A DNA stretch of 32,000 nt from Pyrobaculum calidifontis JCM 11548 (GCF_000015805.1 NC_009073.1:1770001-1802000); one strand, 5' to 3'; positions 9,877 through 24,799 are shown, numbered from the stretch's first letter. The notes: generated by a model not told the origin, from the sequence alone. A program made the numbers and translations.

Positions 9877-9893
9877 GGTTACACCCCTTAACC
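9877..9893. promoter_or_regulatory. candidate operator GGTTAC-ACCCC-TTAACC between divergent nor and narJ
   Basis: 11 of 12 match to GGTTAA-N5-TTAACC. The dyad centre at 9885 is 43 nt from the nor ATG (9842) and 39 nt from the narJ GTG (9924). It is flanked by T-rich CGCTTTTCTC (9863-9872, minus strand) and TATTTAAAAA (9899-9908, plus strand) TATA-like elements. Confidence 0.65.
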
Positions 9894-17262: not shown

Positions 17263-17709
17263 TTAAACTTCGCCGCCCCGTAGCTCCCAGCCGCGTCTCA
17301 GCGCCCTCTTCGCCAACTCCACGAGGTACTCCGCGGCGTGGACAGGAGTGAGGAAGTTTCTCCCAACCACTTTAACCAAGGCGCTTAGGTGCGTGGAGTA
17401 GTAGGGACAGCGCAGGCAGTCGTTGTCGCAGTCGTCGGGCACATAGGCGCAGTTCCCCTCTCCAACTACCACGAGAGGCCTGGCCAAGACCCTTATGTGC
17501 CCATCCACGGCCTCTATGGGTATGTAGACCCCCGGCCCGTCGAAGCCCAGCCCCCTCAGCCTATTTATCCTCCTGTACACGGCGCTTAGAGAAAGGCCTG
17601 TCACAAAGCTTATCTGCTTAGCCCCAAGACCCTTGGCGAGTAGACACAACACGGTGACATCCTCCTTCTCCAGTGAAAAAGAGGTCCGGGGGAGAAATTT
17701 AAATCTCAT
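17263..17709 (-). CDS. HTH transcription regulator with C-terminal four-cysteine cluster (CX6CX3CX2C)
   Basis: N-terminal LuxR/sigma-70 region-4-like HTH (EKEDVTVLCLLAKGLGAKQISFVTGLSLSAVYRRINRL). C-terminal CAYVPDDCDNDCLRCP. The track start (TTG 17730) is unlikely. ATG 17709 (MRFKF...) lies 22-29 nt downstream of TATATAAC (17731-17738, minus strand). Confidence 0.65.
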   Translation of the reverse strand: MRFKFLPRTSFSLEKEDVTVLCLLAKGLGAKQISFVTGLSLSAVYRRINRLRGLGFDGPGVYIPIEAVDGHIRVLARPLVVVGEGNCAYVPDDCDNDCLRCPYYSTHLSALVKVVGRNFLTPVHAAEYLVELAKRALRRGWELRGGEV

Positions 17710-17740
17710 ACTAAGTAGTAAAAAATTCAAGTTATATACG

Positions 17741-18376: not shown

Positions 18377-18393
18377 GGTTAAACACATTAACC
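18377..18393. promoter_or_regulatory. candidate operator GGTTAA-ACACA-TTAACC between divergent cytochrome c and nirS-like genes
   Basis: Perfect 6-5-6 palindrome; the arms extend to 7 bp (18376-18394). The centre at 18385 is 42 nt from the cytochrome c ATG (18343) and 43 nt from the nirS-like ATG (18428). TATA-like GAATAAATC lies at 18399-18407. Confidence 0.7.
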
Positions 18394-18427: not shown

Positions 18428-20053
18428 ATGTCGCAGTCCCAGGAGAAGGGTGCTGGGAGACGCGACGTGTTAAAGGCCTTTGCCGCCGCTGGCCTGGGCT
18501 TCGCTGTTGGTAGCTGGGCCCTTGCCTTGAGCCGCGGCGCGCCTGTGCAGAAGGTGGTGTACGAGAAGGCTGAGGAGGTGAGGGTGAAGCCCGTGGTTCA
18601 AGTACAGCAACAAACCGCGGCGCCGCAGGTGTCCGCGCCTCCCCACGACGCTTTTCAGAAGAGGGGGCTCGCCTACTTGAGCGCCGATTATATACAAAGC
18701 ACTCTGAGGGTGTTGGTGCCGGAGGACCAGCTCCCCAGCAAGCCCACCGCCTACAACATCAACGACTTGGACTGGATAGCCATACTGATTGAGAGCAGAT
18801 ACCACGAGCCGGGCGTGGAGATGGTGGGGGCCTACACCTTCCTCGATATGAAGAATTTTAAGGTGCTGAAGCGGGTGAAAAACGCGGGGGATAGAGTCCA
18901 CGTGGTGAGGTTCGGCCGCGAGGAGTGGCCTGAGCACAAGAGGAGGTTTGCCCTCGGGATGTCAAGGGACTGCTGGCTCTCCAAGATCGACCTCTACTCC
19001 ATGCAGGTGGTTAGGCAGATTAAAATCGGCGTTGACTGCAGAAGCGCGGCGTACGACAAGGACGGGAAGTACGTAATAGCTGGCTCCAAGGACCCGGGCC
19101 ACGTGGTAATCCTTGACGCGGAGACCTTCAAGGTGTTGAAGGTTATCCCATTCCTTGGCGTGAGCAAGTTCTTCCCCACGCCCATGATGGGCCGGCAGGG
19201 CGCCATATTGACAACCGACTTGGGCTACTGGCTAGTCAACGTAAAAGACGCCGAGATGGTGCTTGTGATAGACTACAGAGACCCCTCCTTCCCCATTGTA
19301 CACGTCTTCACGAGCTATGACACTAACAAGAAGGGGAGAAGCGTCAAAGTCCAAATCGGCGACAAGACCTACGAGACCACAGGCATTGGCAAAAGCCCCC
19401 ACGAGCTCAACAAGTTGGACAAAGTGGGGAGGTATGTGGCTGTCACAGGGCAGGAGAGTAGCACAATTACAATACTCGACGTAGAGAACTTCGAGGTTGT
19501 CAACGTTATCCCATGTGGAAAGAAGCCTCACCCAGGCCCCGGCACCCTAGTCCCCAACAAGTACTTCCTAACCAACGCCATAGCCGAGGGCAAAATCACA
19601 GTGATAAACCTACAAACGATGGACCTAGAGAAGTACATAACTTACCCGCAGGAGTTCCCCGCCGACACAGGCGGCGGCCTCTACTCCACGCCGCCGCTCC
19701 CTGATGGCACAATACCCAAGGGCTTGGCGTGGTTTGACACCACGTTTAATATAAACAAGGGCATATTCGCCGTAGATATATACATGCTTGACGTGGCGAC
19801 GCGGCCGCCGAAGCCCGCGATATTTGCCGCAAACAAGCCGGGCAAGTGGGCCATGCACCCCGGCTATACCCCAGACGGGAAGTATGTAATAAGCGCGCTG
19901 GAGCGCACCGACACGGTGTACAAGGTAGACGCCGAGACTGGGGAAATTGTCGGCACCATAAACCTGAAAAACGTAGAGCCAGTCCAGCTACTAGAGGAGC
20001 CAAGCCCAACGGGCATATTCCCAGCTTGGCGCATAAAGGCGCCCTGGTTCTAA
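18428..20053 (+). CDS. nirS: NirS-family heme-d1 beta-propeller protein (nitrite reductase d1 domain) with Tat signal and no heme-c domain
   Basis: 541 aa. Twin-arginine signal (GAGRRDVLKAFAAAGLGFAVG). Segments RVHVVR, IKIGVDCRS, KYVIAG, HVVILDAETF, VNVKDAEMVLVIDY and KKPHPGPG parallel the d1 domain of cd1 nitrite reductases as I remember them. There is no CXXCH anywhere in the ORF. Confidence 0.75.
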   Translation: MSQSQEKGAGRRDVLKAFAAAGLGFAVGSWALALSRGAPVQKVVYEKAEEVRVKPVVQVQQQTAAPQVSAPPHDAFQKRGLAYLSADYIQSTLRVLVPEDQLPSKPTAYNINDLDWIAILIESRYHEPGVEMVGAYTFLDMKNFKVLKRVKNAGDRVHVVRFGREEWPEHKRRFALGMSRDCWLSKIDLYSMQVVRQIKIGVDCRSAAYDKDGKYVIAGSKDPGHVVILDAETFKVLKVIPFLGVSKFFPTPMMGRQGAILTTDLGYWLVNVKDAEMVLVIDYRDPSFPIVHVFTSYDTNKKGRSVKVQIGDKTYETTGIGKSPHELNKLDKVGRYVAVTGQESSTITILDVENFEVVNVIPCGKKPHPGPGTLVPNKYFLTNAIAEGKITVINLQTMDLEKYITYPQEFPADTGGGLYSTPPLPDGTIPKGLAWFDTTFNINKGIFAVDIYMLDVATRPPKPAIFAANKPGKWAMHPGYTPDGKYVISALERTDTVYKVDAETGEIVGTINLKNVEPVQLLEEPSPTGIFPAWRIKAPWF

Positions 20054-20068
20054 AAGGCTTTACTTTTT

Positions 20069-20524
20069 CTAAATAAGAAGGGCCGCCTTTTCAAGCGCCT
20101 TTTTGAAGACCTTGTACACGGCCACCTTTGTCACCCCCAGCTCTTTGGCCACCTCTCCCAAGCCCCTCCCCTCTGCCACTCGGCGCAGGACAGCTCTCTG
20201 CCTCTCTGTGAGAACCAGCCTCCTGTGAGACACTGCCTCCACTTTGACGACATGTGGGTTGGCTTTCAGGAGCTTTTTCACAGCCGGTGTGGCGCCTACC
20301 ACTACGACGAGTCGCCTGTTTTCCAATTCTACGCTTTTTACATACCCCACGGAGAGGAGTTTGTAGAGTATACACTCTTCACATTTAGACACTATGTGGA
20401 CGACTCCTCTAGGCGTTGCCACAACGTGGACGAGCTTGCCGTTTTGTATCTGAAAGCCCAGGTGGGCGTAGGCGTCGGCCGGCGTCTGTGGGCACGGCTT
20501 TAAAACTACGCGAAGAAATTTCAC
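20069..20524 (-). CDS. small transcription regulator, N-terminal Cys/His domain plus C-terminal HTH (paralog R1)
   Basis: 151 aa with a GTG start. KPCP(9-12), AHLGF(20-24), VHVV(32-35), KCEEC(47-51). C-terminal LTERQRAVLRRVAEGRGLGEVAKELGVTKVAVYKVFKKALEKA resembles HTH_10/LuxR/sigma-70 region-4 type. Collinear with ORFs 21516..21974 and 24274..24705. Confidence 0.7.
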   Translation of the reverse strand: MKFLRVVLKPCPQTPADAYAHLGFQIQNGKLVHVVATPRGVVHIVSKCEECILYKLLSVGYVKSVELENRRLVVVVGATPAVKKLLKANPHVVKVEAVSHRRLVLTERQRAVLRRVAEGRGLGEVAKELGVTKVAVYKVFKKALEKAALLI

Positions 20525-20624
20525 AGTAAATAAGTGGTATCAATATTTAACTTTTTCTATGTTCTATATTTTTATTCCCTAATAGACTAATAAATAGAAG
20601 TATGGAAAAAATTGCACAATTGTC

Positions 20625-20649
20625 TTCTGGTTAACTAAATTAACCAGAA
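20625..20649. promoter_or_regulatory. candidate operator TTCTGGTTAA-CTAAA-TTAACCAGAA upstream of the heme O synthase gene
   Basis: Perfect 10-bp arms with core GGTTAA-N5-TTAACC at 20629-20645. The centre at 20637 is 43 nt upstream of the in-frame GTG at 20680. TATA-like GCTTTTAGG lies at 20651-20659. Confidence 0.7.
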
Positions 20650-20679
20650 TGCTTTTAGGCGTTGCTTCGTGTAAGTGTC

Positions 20680-21519
20680 GTGGTGAAGGCGTATCTGACT
20701 TTGTTAAAGCCGAGGGTCATTTGGCTTTTAATTTTGGCCAGCGCAGCTGGGTACGTATACGCCGCGGGGGGCGTGGATTGGGGCAAGCTGTCTTCTCTTC
20801 TCTTGGCGGCTCTCTTGGCCACGGGCGGCTCTGCCGCGTTTAACCACTACTGGGAGCGTGACATAGACGCGGCAATGCGGCGCACGTCTCGTAGGCCTCT
20901 TCCAATGGGCCTAATTAAGCCGGGCAGGGCTTTGGCCTTTTCTCTGGCGCTCTCCGCGGCCGGCGTTGCCCTGGGCTTCCTCCTGCTGGGCCCGTTGCCG
21001 GGGGCCTTCGTGGCCTTGGGCTGGTTCTTCTACGCCGTGGTGTACACCATGTGGCTTAAGAGGAGGAGCTGGCTAAACGTCTTGGCAGGGGGATTCGCCG
21101 GGAACGCGGTTTTTCTAGGCGGATATGCGCTGGGAAAGGGCCACATAGACCTCGCCGCAGTGTTAATGTCCTTTGCCGTGTATCTCTGGATCCCGGCGCA
21201 CATATGGTCTCTGGCCTACAAGTACAAAGAGGACTACAGAAGGGCTGGCGTCCCCATGCTTCCTGTCGTAATTGGCGAGCAGAAGGCTGTCGTCGTGATA
21301 TCTGTCTTGAACGTGGCAAGTGTCGCCTATATAGCACTTTTGACGTTGCTCTTTTTGCCCTCCCTCTTGTCCTTGTTGCTAGTCGCCGTGGGCGCGGGGG
21401 CGGCCGTTGCGTCGAGTATATACGCGCTGGTGAAGAGGACTGAGGGAGCCATGTGGAAGATGTATAAATCCTCGGCCCCCGTCTTGACGATATTCTTGGT
21501 CGCAGTAATGCTGGCCTAG
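20680..21519 (+). CDS. ctaB: protoheme IX farnesyltransferase (heme O synthase, UbiA family)
   Basis: Motif [21 protein letters not shown] is typical of CtaB/CyoE; the protein is polytopic. The track start is TTG 20662. GTG 20680 or 20683 ([13 protein letters not shown]...) fits the TATA and box spacing better. Confidence 0.88.
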
Positions 21520-21974
21520 ACTAGGAGGGCCACCTTTTTCAAAGCTCTCCTAATTAGCTTAAGCGCCGCCACTCTGCTTACGCCCAGCTCTTTGGCCAAG
21601 TCGCCGGCCCCCTTGCCCATTGCCAAGTGGAGGAGCGCGTCTCGCTGTTTTTCAGTGAGCACTAGGTTCTTGTAGGACACCTCCTCTACCTTTACCACTT
21701 GGGGCGAGTTTCTCAAGACCCTTTTAACAGCGCCGTTGCCAGTCACCACGATAGTGATACGCCCCTCGCCCAGCTTGACTCCGCCGAAGATGTACCCGCT
21801 TGACGCCAGTTGGTAGAAGACACACTCGTCGCATTTGGCTACTACCCTCTCCACGCCCCGAGGGGTGGCCACAAGGTGTATTACATGCCCATTGCGCATG
21901 TGAAAGCCTAGATGGGCATAGGCGTCGCGGGGGACCTTTGGGCATGTACGTAAAACAACTCTAAGAAACTGCAT
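21516..21974 (-). CDS. small transcription regulator, N-terminal Cys/His domain plus C-terminal HTH (paralog R2)
   Basis: 152 aa. [68 protein letters not shown]. Clearly homologous to R1 along its full length. 4-nt convergent overlap with ctaB. Confidence 0.7.
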
Positions 21975-22091
21975 AGTAGTAAGTAGTTTTAACTTAATAA
22001 GTCTTGTTACACTATGCTATTTTACATATAGTAACATTTTTATATTATTTATCACACATAAATACATAGAGATGCATCATCGTATTTTCAG

Positions 22092-23060
22092 TTACTGCGG
22101 CGGGTTGAGGGGGACTGGCTTCGACTTGGCTGACCGAAGCGCCGCGTAACCCGCGATCCCCACTACTAACACGGCGGCTGGCGCCGTTAGGCCGACGTTT
22201 CGAAGGGCGTATGCGGCCAGCGACGCGGCTAGTAGCTCGTACTTGTAGCTTGGCGCTTCTCTGTAGAGGATTGAGGGGAGGAAGTAGGGCACGCAGAGGG
22301 TGGACATTATGACGGCGAAGGCCATGTAGGCGAAGTGGTGCCCCAGAGGGGCCAGGGCTATGGCTACTCTAAAGAAGAGGGACCCCACGCCGTATGCGTC
22401 GCGGGGCTTGGGAGGAGCCGTTAGGGTTAGGGCAATGGAGGGGAATATGAAGGACCACAGATGCCCCCACAGTGACGCGGCCCAGGCTAGGGCGTAGAGG
22501 AGGGCCAGGGTAGCCGCCGCCTTCAGCCTAAAACGCGCCTTTGCCCTAGAGACGTCTACGCGGTAGAGAAGAGTGTAGACGGAGGCCAGTGGGAAAGATA
22601 GCGCCGCCATTAGGGGGGTGGGGGAGAGCGGGAGAAGGGCGAGGCCTGGTATGGTGATTAAGTTGGGGTAAAAGGTGGGCTTTTTTCCAAGCCCCTTGGC
22701 GTATAGGGCGATGTACACGGCGGAGAAGGGGGCGTAGGCGGCGTAGCCGTAGAGCTGGGAGGCGGCTGTGCCAAGGATGAAGAGGGCTGTGAGTAGCCAC
22801 GTGGCCCACCTAGCCGGCGCCGCGTTGATGAAGCCTGGTAGCTGGATGTACATTACGGCGAAGTAGAACGCCAGCAGGCCCGACACCATGAGGGACATAT
22901 GCCACGCCACCTGCCCCACGGCGGCGAGGAGGGCGCCCCCGGCCAAGAAAAAGGCCGAAAGAAAGAGGGCGAGCCTGGAGGCCCACACCACGTCTACCAC
23001 GGCCTTGTAAAAAGCCAAGGGCTCAGACCTCCCCACTGGCAACCAAGGCGAGAGGCCCAT
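22092..23060 (-). CDS. polytopic membrane protein, divergent NnrS-like candidate
   Basis: 322 aa, hydrophobic throughout. The segment WHMSLMVSGLLAFYFAVMYIQLPGF loosely parallels the NnrS H-x-x-x-M-x-x-G-F region. Starts 9 nt after the upstream NnrS-like gene. Confidence 0.4.
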   Translation of the reverse strand: MGLSPWLPVGRSEPLAFYKAVVDVVWASRLALFLSAFFLAGGALLAAVGQVAWHMSLMVSGLLAFYFAVMYIQLPGFINAAPARWATWLLTALFILGTAASQLYGYAAYAPFSAVYIALYAKGLGKKPTFYPNLITIPGLALLPLSPTPLMAALSFPLASVYTLLYRVDVSRAKARFRLKAAATLALLYALAWAASLWGHLWSFIFPSIALTLTAPPKPRDAYGVGSLFFRVAIALAPLGHHFAYMAFAVIMSTLCVPYFLPSILYREAPSYKYELLAASLAAYALRNVGLTAPAAVLVVGIAGYAALRSAKSKPVPLNPPQ

Positions 23061-23069
23061 TGCGGCCGC

Positions 23070-24182
23070 TTAAAGCCCTCTTAGTCTGCGTTGCATGTTT
23101 AATAGGAATGCCACGATGGCAACACCCACGGCGGGGCCTGTGAGCGCGGCCAAGGGAGGCGTCGGCCATGCGGGGTAGAGGGCCCTGAGGAGGAGCCCCA
23201 CGTTTAACAGCGCAGAAAGGACAGCCTCGGCGACTGGGAAGCCCCTGCGCCTTATTGACACAGTAACCCTCTTGACTTGGCCAGCCAGCATGTCCATAAG
23301 CACCACGTCTACTCCAAACACTATGTTAAAAATGAAGCCCAGCGCGGCGGCGTGCACCGCCACGTCGTACCAAAGCCCGGCGCCCCCTGTAGCCGTCAGA
23401 ACTATGCCGGAGAGGGCCAGCCAGAAATACGCCGTGTATATCTGGACAAGGGAGTACCGCACCTCTACCCCCCTCAAGAGGCCGGAGGAGGCCAGCGAGA
23501 GGGCTGAGGCTGTGAGAATAAGCACGCCAGCTGCCCTCGGCGCCCCGGCGGCCCATGTGAAAAACGCCGCGGCTATGAGGGCAAAGGCAACGGCGTTGCC
23601 CCACCCCCTGGCGGGCTTTTTCCCAGTCACTAGAGAGATGTCTCTGGCCATAACGGCGAAGATGGTGCCTATGGGGAATACCAATGCGGCGACCGCGGCG
23701 TTGAAAAGGCCAAGTAAGCCGAAAATCGGCACTACGGCGGACACAGCCAGCGCCGCCGCCAAGAGGTAGTTGTAGAGCACAGGCCTGAGGCCTATCCGCG
23801 AGGGCGCTAGGTAGACTTTGCCCGCGTACGCCAGGAGAATCAGCAAAGCCACGAAAGAGGAGAGGTAGGCCGCGGCAAAGGCCCCCGCCAAGGTAAAGGC
23901 CACGGTCAACCAGAGCATGGCGGCGAAAGGAGCCATGTATGCAAGGGGTGCCGCCCTGCCGCTCCACTCCAGCGAGAGCACGTGGAGAACCTCGTTCCCA
24001 ATAAGCGCTAGGAAGAAGCCGAAAATCATGAGAAGCCAGTGCCTATCCAGCCCCAGCGGAATAGGCGAAGGAAGCCCCGCCCAGCTCCACAATATGGAAA
24101 TCCCCGTGAGACCCCCCAACACCAGCGACAAAAGCCCAGACGCCATCACAGCCACAAAACGGGGAAAGAGCGTTGTCGACAT
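23070..24182 (-). CDS. NnrS-like heme/copper membrane protein candidate
   Basis: 370 aa, about 10-12 TM. DRHWLLMIFGFFLALIGNEVLHVLSLEWSGR parallels the NnrS signature as I recall it (HAHEMLFGF...NWTGR). A second conserved His sits in VAVHAAALGF. TATA-like TTTTTATGTT (24201-24210, minus strand) lies 19-28 nt upstream of the ATG. Confidence 0.5.
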   Translation of the reverse strand: MSTTLFPRFVAVMASGLLSLVLGGLTGISILWSWAGLPSPIPLGLDRHWLLMIFGFFLALIGNEVLHVLSLEWSGRAAPLAYMAPFAAMLWLTVAFTLAGAFAAAYLSSFVALLILLAYAGKVYLAPSRIGLRPVLYNYLLAAALAVSAVVPIFGLLGLFNAAVAALVFPIGTIFAVMARDISLVTGKKPARGWGNAVAFALIAAAFFTWAAGAPRAAGVLILTASALSLASSGLLRGVEVRYSLVQIYTAYFWLALSGIVLTATGGAGLWYDVAVHAAALGFIFNIVFGVDVVLMDMLAGQVKRVTVSIRRRGFPVAEAVLSALLNVGLLLRALYPAWPTPPLAALTGPAVGVAIVAFLLNMQRRLRGL

Positions 24183-24273
24183 AGAGCACTTCCCGTTGTC
24201 AACATAAAAACATGATGAACCCTAAGGCGGCCATCGCGCATCCCGATGCCAAGCCTTAAGCACTGCGAGAGGA

Positions 24274-24705
24274 TCACTCTCCCAGTAGAGCCAGTAATTT
24301 TCTCACAGCTCTCTTCACAAGCTTACTTGTAGCCGCCTTAGAAACTCCCAGCTTCTCAGCCGCGCCTTTGATAGAGCGTGAAGAAAACACACGCAAAGCC
24401 TCCACTTCCCTTTCGGTCAAGTTAAATCTGTAAGGGGCGTAACAAGGCCCATAAGCCGACTGCCCCCTCACCACTATGGCAAATATAAAATATCCATCCA
24501 CGGTAAGAATAGATTTGATATAAGACTTAGATACAAGCTTCGCGATGGAGCAGTCCTTCCTGCATACAACTTTTCTGAGCCTCCCGTTCCAAACTAGGTG
24601 AGCCAAGTCGCCGTTCTCCACTCTGAATCCAACATGTTTAAACTCATCCCCAGATTGTGCCAAAAAATGAGGGCATGGCTTATGTCTAATTATACAGATA
24701 TACAT
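24274..24705 (-). CDS. small transcription regulator, N-terminal Cys/His domain plus C-terminal HTH (paralog R3, most divergent)
   Basis: 143 aa. HKPCP, KHVGF, AHLV, CRKDC (CX3C), then LTEREVEALRVFSSRSIKGAAEKLGVSKAATSKLVKRAVRKL. Same order and spacing of features as R1 and R2. TATA-like TTTTTATAAG (24721-24730, minus strand). Confidence 0.65.
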   Translation of the reverse strand: MYICIIRHKPCPHFLAQSGDEFKHVGFRVENGDLAHLVWNGRLRKVVCRKDCSIAKLVSKSYIKSILTVDGYFIFAIVVRGQSAYGPCYAPYRFNLTEREVEALRVFSSRSIKGAAEKLGVSKAATSKLVKRAVRKLLALLGE

Positions 24706-24740: not shown

Positions 24741-24781
24741 CTAGAACGCCACGGCGGCTCTGTACAGACTCGCCGTTCTAG
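24741..24781. repeat. GC-rich imperfect palindrome: CTAGAAC...GTTCTAG outer arms and GGCGGCTCTGTACAGACTCGCC inner dyad
   Basis: Outer arms at 24741-24747 and 24775-24781. The inner 22-nt dyad (24753-24774) has 2 mismatches and is centred on TGTACA. It lies between the R3 promoter and the nosZ box, abutting the latter. Confidence 0.6.
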
Positions 24782-24782
24782 A

Positions 24783-24799
24783 GGTTAACGAGGTTAACC
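24783..24799. promoter_or_regulatory. candidate operator GGTTAA-CGAGG-TTAACC upstream of nosZ
   Basis: Perfect 6-5-6 palindrome, which also reads as the tandem repeat GAGGTTAAC x2. The centre at 24791 is 42 nt upstream of the nosZ ATG (24833). The A/T-rich AAAAGACTTAT at 24800-24810 is the presumptive TATA. Confidence 0.7.

Follow-up and report, generated by a model that had tools for sequence, protein, structure and literature searches.

CRP/FNR paralogs control denitrification in several bacteria: FnrP, NNR and NarR of Paracoccus denitrificans and ANR and DNR of Pseudomonas share one palindrome near -41.5/-42 of nar, nir, nor and nos promoters and sense different signals, namely O2 via an Fe-S cluster, nitric oxide (NO), nitrate or nitrite. 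We know of no denitrification switch in hyperthermophilic Crenarchaeota. Here, we analyze a 32,000-nucleotide stretch of Pyrobaculum calidifontis JCM 11548 (NC_009073.1:1770001-1802000; the window), which contains a complete denitrification island and three small paralogous proteins, R1, R2 and R3, each composed of an N-terminal domain (N-domain) with conserved Cys and His residues and a C-terminal helix-turn-helix (HTH). R1-R3 are the best candidates yet for denitrification switches in Thermoproteota, and on balance we favor the reading that they are one-component dimeric activators binding a 17-bp box, GGTTAA-N5-TTAACC, and gated by a Cys/His redox, NO or O2 sensor.

NarO, an HTH_10/bacterio-opsin-activator-type protein without PAS or GAF domains, is the one denitrification regulator described from archaea (PMC11218638), and it has been called an oxygen sensor (PMC11218638, PMC10062603). 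Like NarO of Haloferax volcanii and DmsR of Halobacterium, R1-R3 are one-component proteins with a C-terminal HTH_10-type domain, lack PAS and GAF domains, and are encoded beside respiratory reductase genes; unlike them, they belong to Thermoproteota rather than Halobacteria, lack the GYFDxPR-type insertion and, for R1 and R3, score below the Pfam cut-off. The resemblance to NarO noted in the initial annotation can be confirmed at the level of family type (HTH_10); in a profile comparison (hhalign) of the N-domain with two haloarchaeal HTH_10 proteins, only the HTH aligns. The haloarchaeal promoter motif CGAAYATDKTYG is unrelated to the box. Hattori et al. in 2016 reportedly found a Cys-rich N-terminus in NarO, and Cozen et al. 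in 2009 are said to have used expression data to predict "a nitric oxide-responsive transcriptional regulator" in P. aerophilum. If that regulator belongs to the present family, the functional idea is partly not new.

The closest functional analogy to R1-R3 is FnrP/NNR/NarR, as dimeric HTH paralogs in or near denitrification clusters with one box, a parallel in which dimerization of the R proteins is presumed. R1-R3 differ from CRP/FNR proteins in fold, box sequence, the archaeal TBP/TFB machinery and leaderless mRNAs; they give no Pfam or NCBIfam match to a cNMP-binding or HTH_Crp domain at E<=1, and no CRP/FNR protein appears in the Foldseek top-50 list. NsrR and IscR of the Rrf2 family are small dimers in which three Cys and one His or Asp ligate an NO/O2-reactive Fe-S cluster, with NsrR controlling NO-detoxifying genes. 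The ligand inventory of the R family, up to three Cys and one His, would be compatible with a putative cluster of this type, whereas the HTH sits at the opposite, C-terminal end, the cysteines are spaced differently, and R1-R3 have no Rrf2 match in Pfam or NCBIfam. SurR of Pyrococcus and MsvR of methanogens are archaeal redox regulators that use CxxC or Cys motifs as thiol switches of DNA binding, another chemistry that the C-x2-C of the R family might follow; the domains of these proteins (winged HTH/ArsR-type and V4R) are unrelated, with no sequence or fold match to the R family seen.

A candidate regulator family among denitrification genes

R1-R3 are encoded by three collinear open reading frames (ORFs) on the minus strand, at the positions given in the initial annotation (Table 1). 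R1 and R2 share 54% identity (BLASTP E=3e-60), and R1 and R3 share 30% identity spanning both domains (E=5e-16), which confirms the proposed paralogy. The motifs listed there are all present in R1/R2/R3 order: KPCP/RTCP/KPCP, AHLGF/AHLGF/KHVGF, VHVV/IHLV/AHLV, KCEEC/KCDEC/CRKDC and LTE(R/K). In R3, C-x3-C replaces C-x2-C and the end of the N-domain is shortened. The three sequences match deposited P. calidifontis proteins exactly (ABO09338.1/WP_011850596.1 for R1, ABO09340.1 for R2 and ABO09343.1 for R3), so their starts agree with the public annotation, which is generic: "bacterio-opsin activator, HTH domain protein", "LuxR family transcriptional regulator" and "helix-turn-helix domain-containing protein". 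A search of the proteins encoded in the window reveals no fourth member, and the searchable literature yielded no characterization of the R1-R3 genes.

The C-terminal domain scores 25.8 (R2), 21.3 (R1) and 21.2 bits (R3) on HTH_10 (PF04967; gathering cut-off 23.1), placing R2 above the cut-off and R1 and R3 just below it. R1 is also below the cut-offs of GerE (PF00196; 20.8 vs 23.5) and Sigma70_r4 (PF04545; 21.5 vs 24.1), as is R3 for Sigma70_r4 (19.3); P0038 is the only member passing GerE (26.6). NCBIfam returns weak HTH-containing models only. The HTH is of the same structural class as LuxR/GerE and sigma-70 region 4, yet these scores do not qualify R1-R3 as members; the earlier assignment to the HTH_10/LuxR/sigma-70 region-4 kind gains Pfam support. 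HTH_10 scores rise to 33-43 bits in distant members that share the N-domain (P0057, P0061, P0069, P0074 and P0101), which relates the entire family to HTH_10. The GYF(D/E)xPR-type segment between helices 1 and 2 of HTH_10 is confined to the clade of these five members, there as GYFxYPR, and is missing in R1-R3 and most of the family; R1-R3 have lost it.

Word-indexed protein searches gave 1-13 matches only, and an exhaustive HMMER search of 1.84 billion cluster representatives was needed to reveal the family, which comprises ~40 full-length relatives (50%-identity clusters). It was found here only in Thermoproteota: Pyrobaculum spp., Infirmifilum lucidum (Thermofilaceae) and thermal-metagenome lineages, the metagenomic contigs ranging from 41 to 68% GC. 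A genome-contig profile scan with the three-paralog alignment gave no match, and with a six-sequence alignment it returned three loci in Pyrobaculum metagenome-assembled genomes (MAGs) only; a metagenome scan with a clade-C alignment also gave no match. In the tree, R1 and R2 belong to clade A, with R3 on the clade-B side.

A separate metagenome scan added 42 loci (L numbers below denote loci outside the window). In 24 of them, nirS, qNOR or narG lies within 8 kb (~24 of 33 informative loci); nine carry accessory island genes only, and nine have no island homolog (eight short contigs and the 6.4-kb L030). As many of them derive from a handful of species, the loci cannot be counted as independent. 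Across the family, the neighbors are nearly always qNOR, nirS, narG or nosZ, a distribution contrary to the equal occurrence in unrelated contexts that the initial annotation named as counterevidence.

Within the window, the island runs from narGH with an EB_dh-type subunit and qNOR through a narJ-like gene, a Rieske/cytochrome b pair, a cytochrome c assembly protein, hemerythrin, a cytochrome c-like gene and nirS to R1, ctaB, R2, two membrane proteins, R3, nosZ, nosL, nosD, an ABC ATPase and an ABC-2 membrane protein, the last two of which we read as nosF/nosY-like. This gene set places R1-R3 within the island, as had been proposed. Of the neighbors then named, nirS, ctaB/UbiA, the two membrane proteins and nosZ are as described; the "NnrS-like" label rests on a sub-threshold match, a 52%-identical homolog in L009 scoring 24.6 bits on NnrS (cut-off 28). 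NCBIfam gave nothing useful for the neighbor proteins.

ORF4, a putative 155-residue regulator with a weak N-terminal HTH, lies in an apparent cytochrome c-ORF4-membrane protein-hemerythrin operon headed by the nirS/cytochrome c box. Kept in most full Pyrobaculum islands and absent from minimal qNOR/R loci and Infirmifilum, it is a second candidate Fe-S regulator that could be either a partner of R1-R3 or an alternative reader of the box. Between the convergent genes R1 and nirS lie 15 nt (window 20053-20069), and the stop codons of R2 and ctaB, also convergent, share 4 nt (window 21516-21519). With no room for terminators, antisense read-through is possible at both junctions.

The regions upstream of R1, R2 and R3 measure 137, 117 and 127 nt with GC contents of 26, 24 and 46%, against a window mean of 58%. 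The unusually long, A/T-rich upstream regions of the initial annotation are thus retained in part: R1 and R2 are clearly A/T-rich and R3 mildly so, and the gaps are among the longer ones of the window without being extreme.

A 17-bp palindrome near start codons

The window contains three exact copies of GGTTAA-N5-TTAACC and a fourth with one mismatch (Table 1). At two or fewer mismatches, five matches are present against 0.78 expected, and 0 of 100 shuffles reach five. The divergent nirS/cytochrome c layout of the box recurs in L009, L016, L026 and L053, and boxes better than the degenerate window copy at 9877 lie 34-35 nt before qNOR in L029, L038, L046 and L016.

In the generalized 17-bp format GGYT-N9-ARCC, the palindrome adjoins family members in at least eight separate sequence lineages. 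The 118 kb of non-redundant loci hold eight such palindromes (at least six of eight pairs) against 1.27 expected, a count that none of 500 shuffles reaches. This co-occurrence makes R1-R3 the most likely readers of the palindrome, in line with the role foreseen for them in the initial annotation. The 20-kb locus of Infirmifilum lucidum carries an R gene, a perfect box and a conserved pair of membrane-protein genes, yet none of the 24 window island proteins, not even ORF4, has a homolog there; R is therefore the common denominator of the box. L029-type loci combine qNOR, box and R with no ORF4 within 8 kb. Among the few lineages available for comparing recognition helix and half-site, SKVAV(Y/H)K pairs with GGTTAAC, and SRQAAQK (P0038 and P0039) pairs with GGYTGCAC-A-GTGCAACC.

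The distance from box edge to start codon in Pyrobaculum-type loci is mostly 34 nt (33-35). At nirS/cytochrome c promoters, both start codons keep this 33-35-nt distance and are themselves 84-85 nt apart. Deviations are the narJ-like gene of the window (30 nt) and nirS of L016, which also has an ATG at 16 nt; the L023 box, with one outer-base mismatch, was left out of the spacing measurements. The 279-residue ctaB start used for the window is also that of the relative contig L001. Leaderless mRNAs predominate in Pyrobaculum, and together with the 33-35-nt spacing this puts the box center near -42, directly upstream of the TFB-recognition element (BRE) and TATA box, which are of the AAAA...CTTAT type.

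Two other palindrome interpretations were rejected. The box does not represent two back-to-back BREs, as full palindromes also occur at the unidirectional nosZ, ctaB, L029 qNOR, L054 hemerythrin and L063 membrane-module promoters. Palindromes of the form GGTTGCTGGCCGCAACC at narG starts were rejected as operators, as they lie inside the twin-arginine signal coding sequence (L041 11022, L057 1482, L025 3048 and L030 5228). This sequence resembles the putative operator of L003/L014, is absent from the window narG, and is probably a coding coincidence.

Table 1. Positions and surroundings of the regulator genes, palindromes and associated features (window coordinates unless a locus is named)
Feature	Sequence	Position	Strand	Remarks
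R1		20069..20524	-	151 aa; clade-A member; ORF call, exact protein match, AlphaFold2, Pfam
R1 N-domain (putative sensor)		20225-20524		aa 1-100
R1 HTH		20072-20215		aa ~104-150
R2		21516..21974	-	152 aa; clade-A member
R3		24274..24705	-	143 aa; separate ancient clade (clade-B side); neighbor-joining tree and motif table
ORF4		17263..17730	-	155 aa; C-terminal C-x6-C-x3-C-x2-C-P
Two membrane proteins between R3 and R2		22092-24182	-	no Pfam match
Degenerate box, one mismatch	GGTTACACCCCTTAACC	9877..9893		qNOR norB ATG 34 nt left; narJ-like GTG 30 nt right
Box, exact	GGTTAAACACATTAACC	18377..18393		middle of 84-nt divergent promoter; nirS ATG 34 nt right, cytochrome c-like ATG (18343) 33 nt left
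Box, exact	GGTTAACTAAATTAACC, arms extending to TTCTGGTTAA/TTAACCAGAA	20629..20645		34 nt before ctaB/UbiA GTG (20680); 104 nt from R1 start
Box, exact	GGTTAACGAGGTTAACC	24783..24799		33 nt before nosZ ATG (24833); 77 nt from R3 start
Imperfect 41-nt palindrome	CTAGAACG...TCTGTACAGA...CGTTCTAG	24741..24781		between nosZ box and R3 TATA; arms around perfect 10-mer TCTGTACAGA; about -35 to -75 of R3
Box	GGTTAACCACGTTTACC	L009		nirS/cytochrome c
Box	GGCTAACCTGGTTAGCC	L016		nirS/cytochrome c
Box	GGTTAACCACATAAACC	L016		qNOR
Box	GGTTAA(C/T)CGGATTAACC	L029/L038		qNOR / R
Box variants		L026, L053		nirS/cytochrome c
Box variant		L054		hemerythrin
Box variant		L046		qNOR
Palindrome	GGCTACCCGGTGTAGCC	L012		qNOR / R
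Palindrome	GGTTGCACAGTGCAACC	L003		next to R
Palindrome	GGCTGCACAGTGCAACC	L014		next to R
Palindrome	GGTAAACAGTGTTTACA	L017		next to R
Perfect box	GGTTAACGCCGTTAACC	L063 (Infirmifilum lucidum)		next to R
R-gene context		L009		Pyrobaculum MAG: NnrS-like gene, R, tetrapyrrole methylase, nirS
R-gene context		L010		R upstream of narGH
R-gene context		L012 and L029 type		qNOR divergent, adjoining R gene
R-gene context		L003, L019		COX1 protein and cytochrome c beside R
R-gene context		L016		full island, two R genes tail to tail
R-gene context		L009, L010, L016, L023, L026, L041, L053		nirS, narGH or whole islands adjacent to R
Tail-to-tail clade-A/clade-B pair		L023, L025-L028, L030, L041, L046-L048, L050, L053		e.g. 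L041 7962-8933
~190/~450-aa membrane-protein pair		L063 10635-12571; L017 600-2533; L016 5989-7946		also between R' and narG in L010/L026

Clade-A (P0010-like) and clade-B (P0022-like) genes form a conserved tail-to-tail pair in many Pyrobaculum-type loci. In L025, L027, L028 and L041, the clade-B gene is accompanied by a 16-nt box-like element of the GGCTAAT-N3-ATTACC type, which in L041 ends 34 nt before the ATG and hints at a regulatory cascade.

The conserved membrane-protein pair, ~190 and ~450 residues long, is polytopic, carries His-rich motifs (e.g., AHWHML and GHAHG) and matches no Pfam family. It follows or faces R-family genes, Infirmifilum lucidum included, and is absent from the window; in L063 and L017 it is preceded by a 17-bp palindrome ending 34-36 nt from the start. 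The COX1 protein of L003 is 28% identical to the window qNOR (E=1e-25). In L016 (GCA_053492815.1, 3429-5931), narG consists of a 345-residue N-terminal piece followed by a 486-residue ORF in which part of narG is fused to the EB_dh subunit, which reflects either a deletion or an artifact of assembly.

The N-domain and its conserved Cys and His residues

AlphaFold2 with the family alignment gives a confident model of full-length R1, with a predicted local distance difference test score of 94.4, or 93.3 when the N-domain is modeled by itself. The model comprises seven strands and two helices, followed by a three-helix HTH. The N-domain, an alpha/beta domain of ~100 residues, matches no Pfam or NCBIfam model, and Foldseek finds no solved structural relative (best E=0.12, TM<=0.35). 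The best, weak matches of the full-length model are the LuxR-type proteins SdiA, RhlR and TraR (TM ~0.3, rmsd ~13 Å, HTH-driven), which share the domain order of an N-terminal alpha/beta sensor followed by a C-terminal LuxR-type HTH.

Residue conservation was counted in 86 distinct family sequences. Cys11 (84/84) and Cys51 (86/86) are invariant, His33 and Gly23 are each present in 84/86, and a third Cys at position 47 or 48 occurs in 79/86, as C-x2-C in most and C-x3-C in the R3 clade. The core of the N-domain is therefore two Cys and one His with a frequent third Cys; the C-x2-C or C-x3-C lies at the start of helix 1. The three Cys and two His that the initial annotation took as conserved are thus reduced to two invariant Cys, the near-invariant His33 and the frequent third Cys; His21 is kept in 41/86 and is Tyr in 42/86.

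The same counts bear on the suggestion that R1-R3 are heme sensors, with a Cys-Pro motif and a His as second axial ligand. Cys-Pro at residues 11-12 together with His21 and His33 occurs in all of R1-R3, in favor of this idea; across the family, Pro12 is found in 20/86 members only, and half carry Tyr in place of His21. As neither residue is conserved, the heme reading fails, and we regard it as very improbable.

Proposed mechanism and alternatives

We infer DNA binding by the R proteins, their dimerization, activation rather than repression, the signal and the cofactor from the features described above. R proteins would bind GGTTAA-N5-TTAACC as dimers, with norB/narJ, nirS/cytochrome c, ctaB and nosZ as putative targets in P. 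calidifontis. Archaeal activators typically act from just upstream of the BRE by recruiting TFB or TBP, and an R dimer at about -42 may activate by contacting either factor. A single symmetric dimer could serve both arms of the divergent nirS/cytochrome c promoter. The N-domain would use a Cys/His site to make DNA binding or activation dependent on oxygen, redox state or NO, and this site may consist of an Fe-S cluster, a different metal or a thiol/disulfide switch. The signal is probably NO, O2 or redox state, because the family keeps company with NO-producing and NO-consuming enzymes, and the three paralogs, which represent two ancient clades, probably combine different signals at a common set of boxes.

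Several observations weigh against this reading. None of R1-R3 has a promoter-proximal box: the nearest lie 104 nt from R1 and 77 nt from R3, and R2 has none, its A/T-rich promoter region showing no box at -51..-35. The earlier remark that each gene sits next to a promoter is accordingly valid as a description of the neighborhood only, and R1-R3 are probably not autoregulated through the box in P. calidifontis. The format GGYT-N9-ARCC was generalized post hoc from phylogenetically clustered loci; outside Pyrobaculum-type genomes, palindrome sequences differ and the spacing ranges from 21 to 118 nt (L012, L003 and L014), L019 has no clean box, and member P0082 (L006) adjoins a non-Nar molybdopterin oxidoreductase. 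Within the N-domain, the third Cys is missing in 7/86 members, Pro12 and His21 vary, and the modeled strand register suggests that His33 need not adjoin Cys48. In most full islands, the candidate regulator ORF4, which has a four-Cys motif, shares an apparent transcription unit controlled by a box promoter.

The last point, together with the absence of promoter-proximal boxes at R1-R3 and the second, different palindrome in the R3-nosZ spacer, would fit a scheme in which R proteins regulate the island while ORF4 or an unlinked factor reads the box, R1-R3 binding the A/T-rich regions or the 24741-24781 palindrome instead. ORF4 is absent, however, where box and R persist (L029 type, L046/48 and L063 of Infirmifilum), and the distant R genes of the minimal loci L003, L012, L014 and L017 still adjoin 17-bp palindromes of the same format, which renders this scheme improbable. 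Binding of the box by R proteins as repressors, blocking access of TFB to the BRE under oxic conditions and released by an anaerobic or NO signal, is conceivable sterically, since the box directly adjoins the BRE, its edge lying at about -35. Yet the box overlaps neither the TATA box nor the start site, and archaeal regulators upstream of the BRE are typically activators (e.g., Ptr2, TFB-RF1 and SurR at promoters that they activate). The TATA elements of the target genes are of a weak-looking CTTAT type, which resembles activator-dependent promoters, and a 34-nt distance kept rigidly on either side points to contact with the initiation complex; repression is a somewhat unlikely mode of action.

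The Cys and His residues of the N-domain could be structural, as a Zn site or a Thermoproteales-type disulfide, with the N-domain serving as a dimerization or small-ligand module devoid of Cys redox or NO chemistry. Only two Cys are invariant, the third is absent from some members and displaced by one position in the R3 clade, the spacing conforms to no Fe-S-type motif, and Pyrobaculum proteins are known for abundant structural intracellular disulfides, so the invariant pair may be one of them. Against a structural role stand the tight association of the family with NO-making and NO-consuming genes, which in bacteria are nearly always under NO/O2 sensors, the C-x2-C at a helix N-terminus with a distant Cys and His, a common metal or redox layout, and the conservation of His33 and Gly23 to the same degree as the cysteines. 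We consider the structural role a real possibility, short of an even chance. Our more specific proposal, that the N-domain is a previously unrecognized sensor fold whose Cys pair, His33 and optional third Cys hold an Fe-S or redox site for NO/O2, with clades paralleling FNR/DNR/NNR, is tentative and may well prove wrong.

The analysis supplies a candidate regulator family, a putative 17-bp operator 33-35 nt from leaderless starts and a putative regulon of nor, nir, nos, ctaB and accessory genes, and these make crenarchaeal denitrification switching directly testable by electrophoretic mobility shift assay, in vitro transcription and spectroscopy. The absence of both a Pfam family and a solved structural relative means that the N-domain could be a new sensor module for gas or redox state. 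The two-sided fixed spacing around a central palindrome offers a clean model for how one archaeal activator dimer might serve two divergent promoters. If the sensor fold and activation from -42 are correct, R1-R3 would be the first regulators, and the box the first defined operator, of denitrification in Thermoproteota, and the R1/R2-type and R3-type clades would be the crenarchaeal counterpart of the bacterial FNR/DNR/NNR division of labor.

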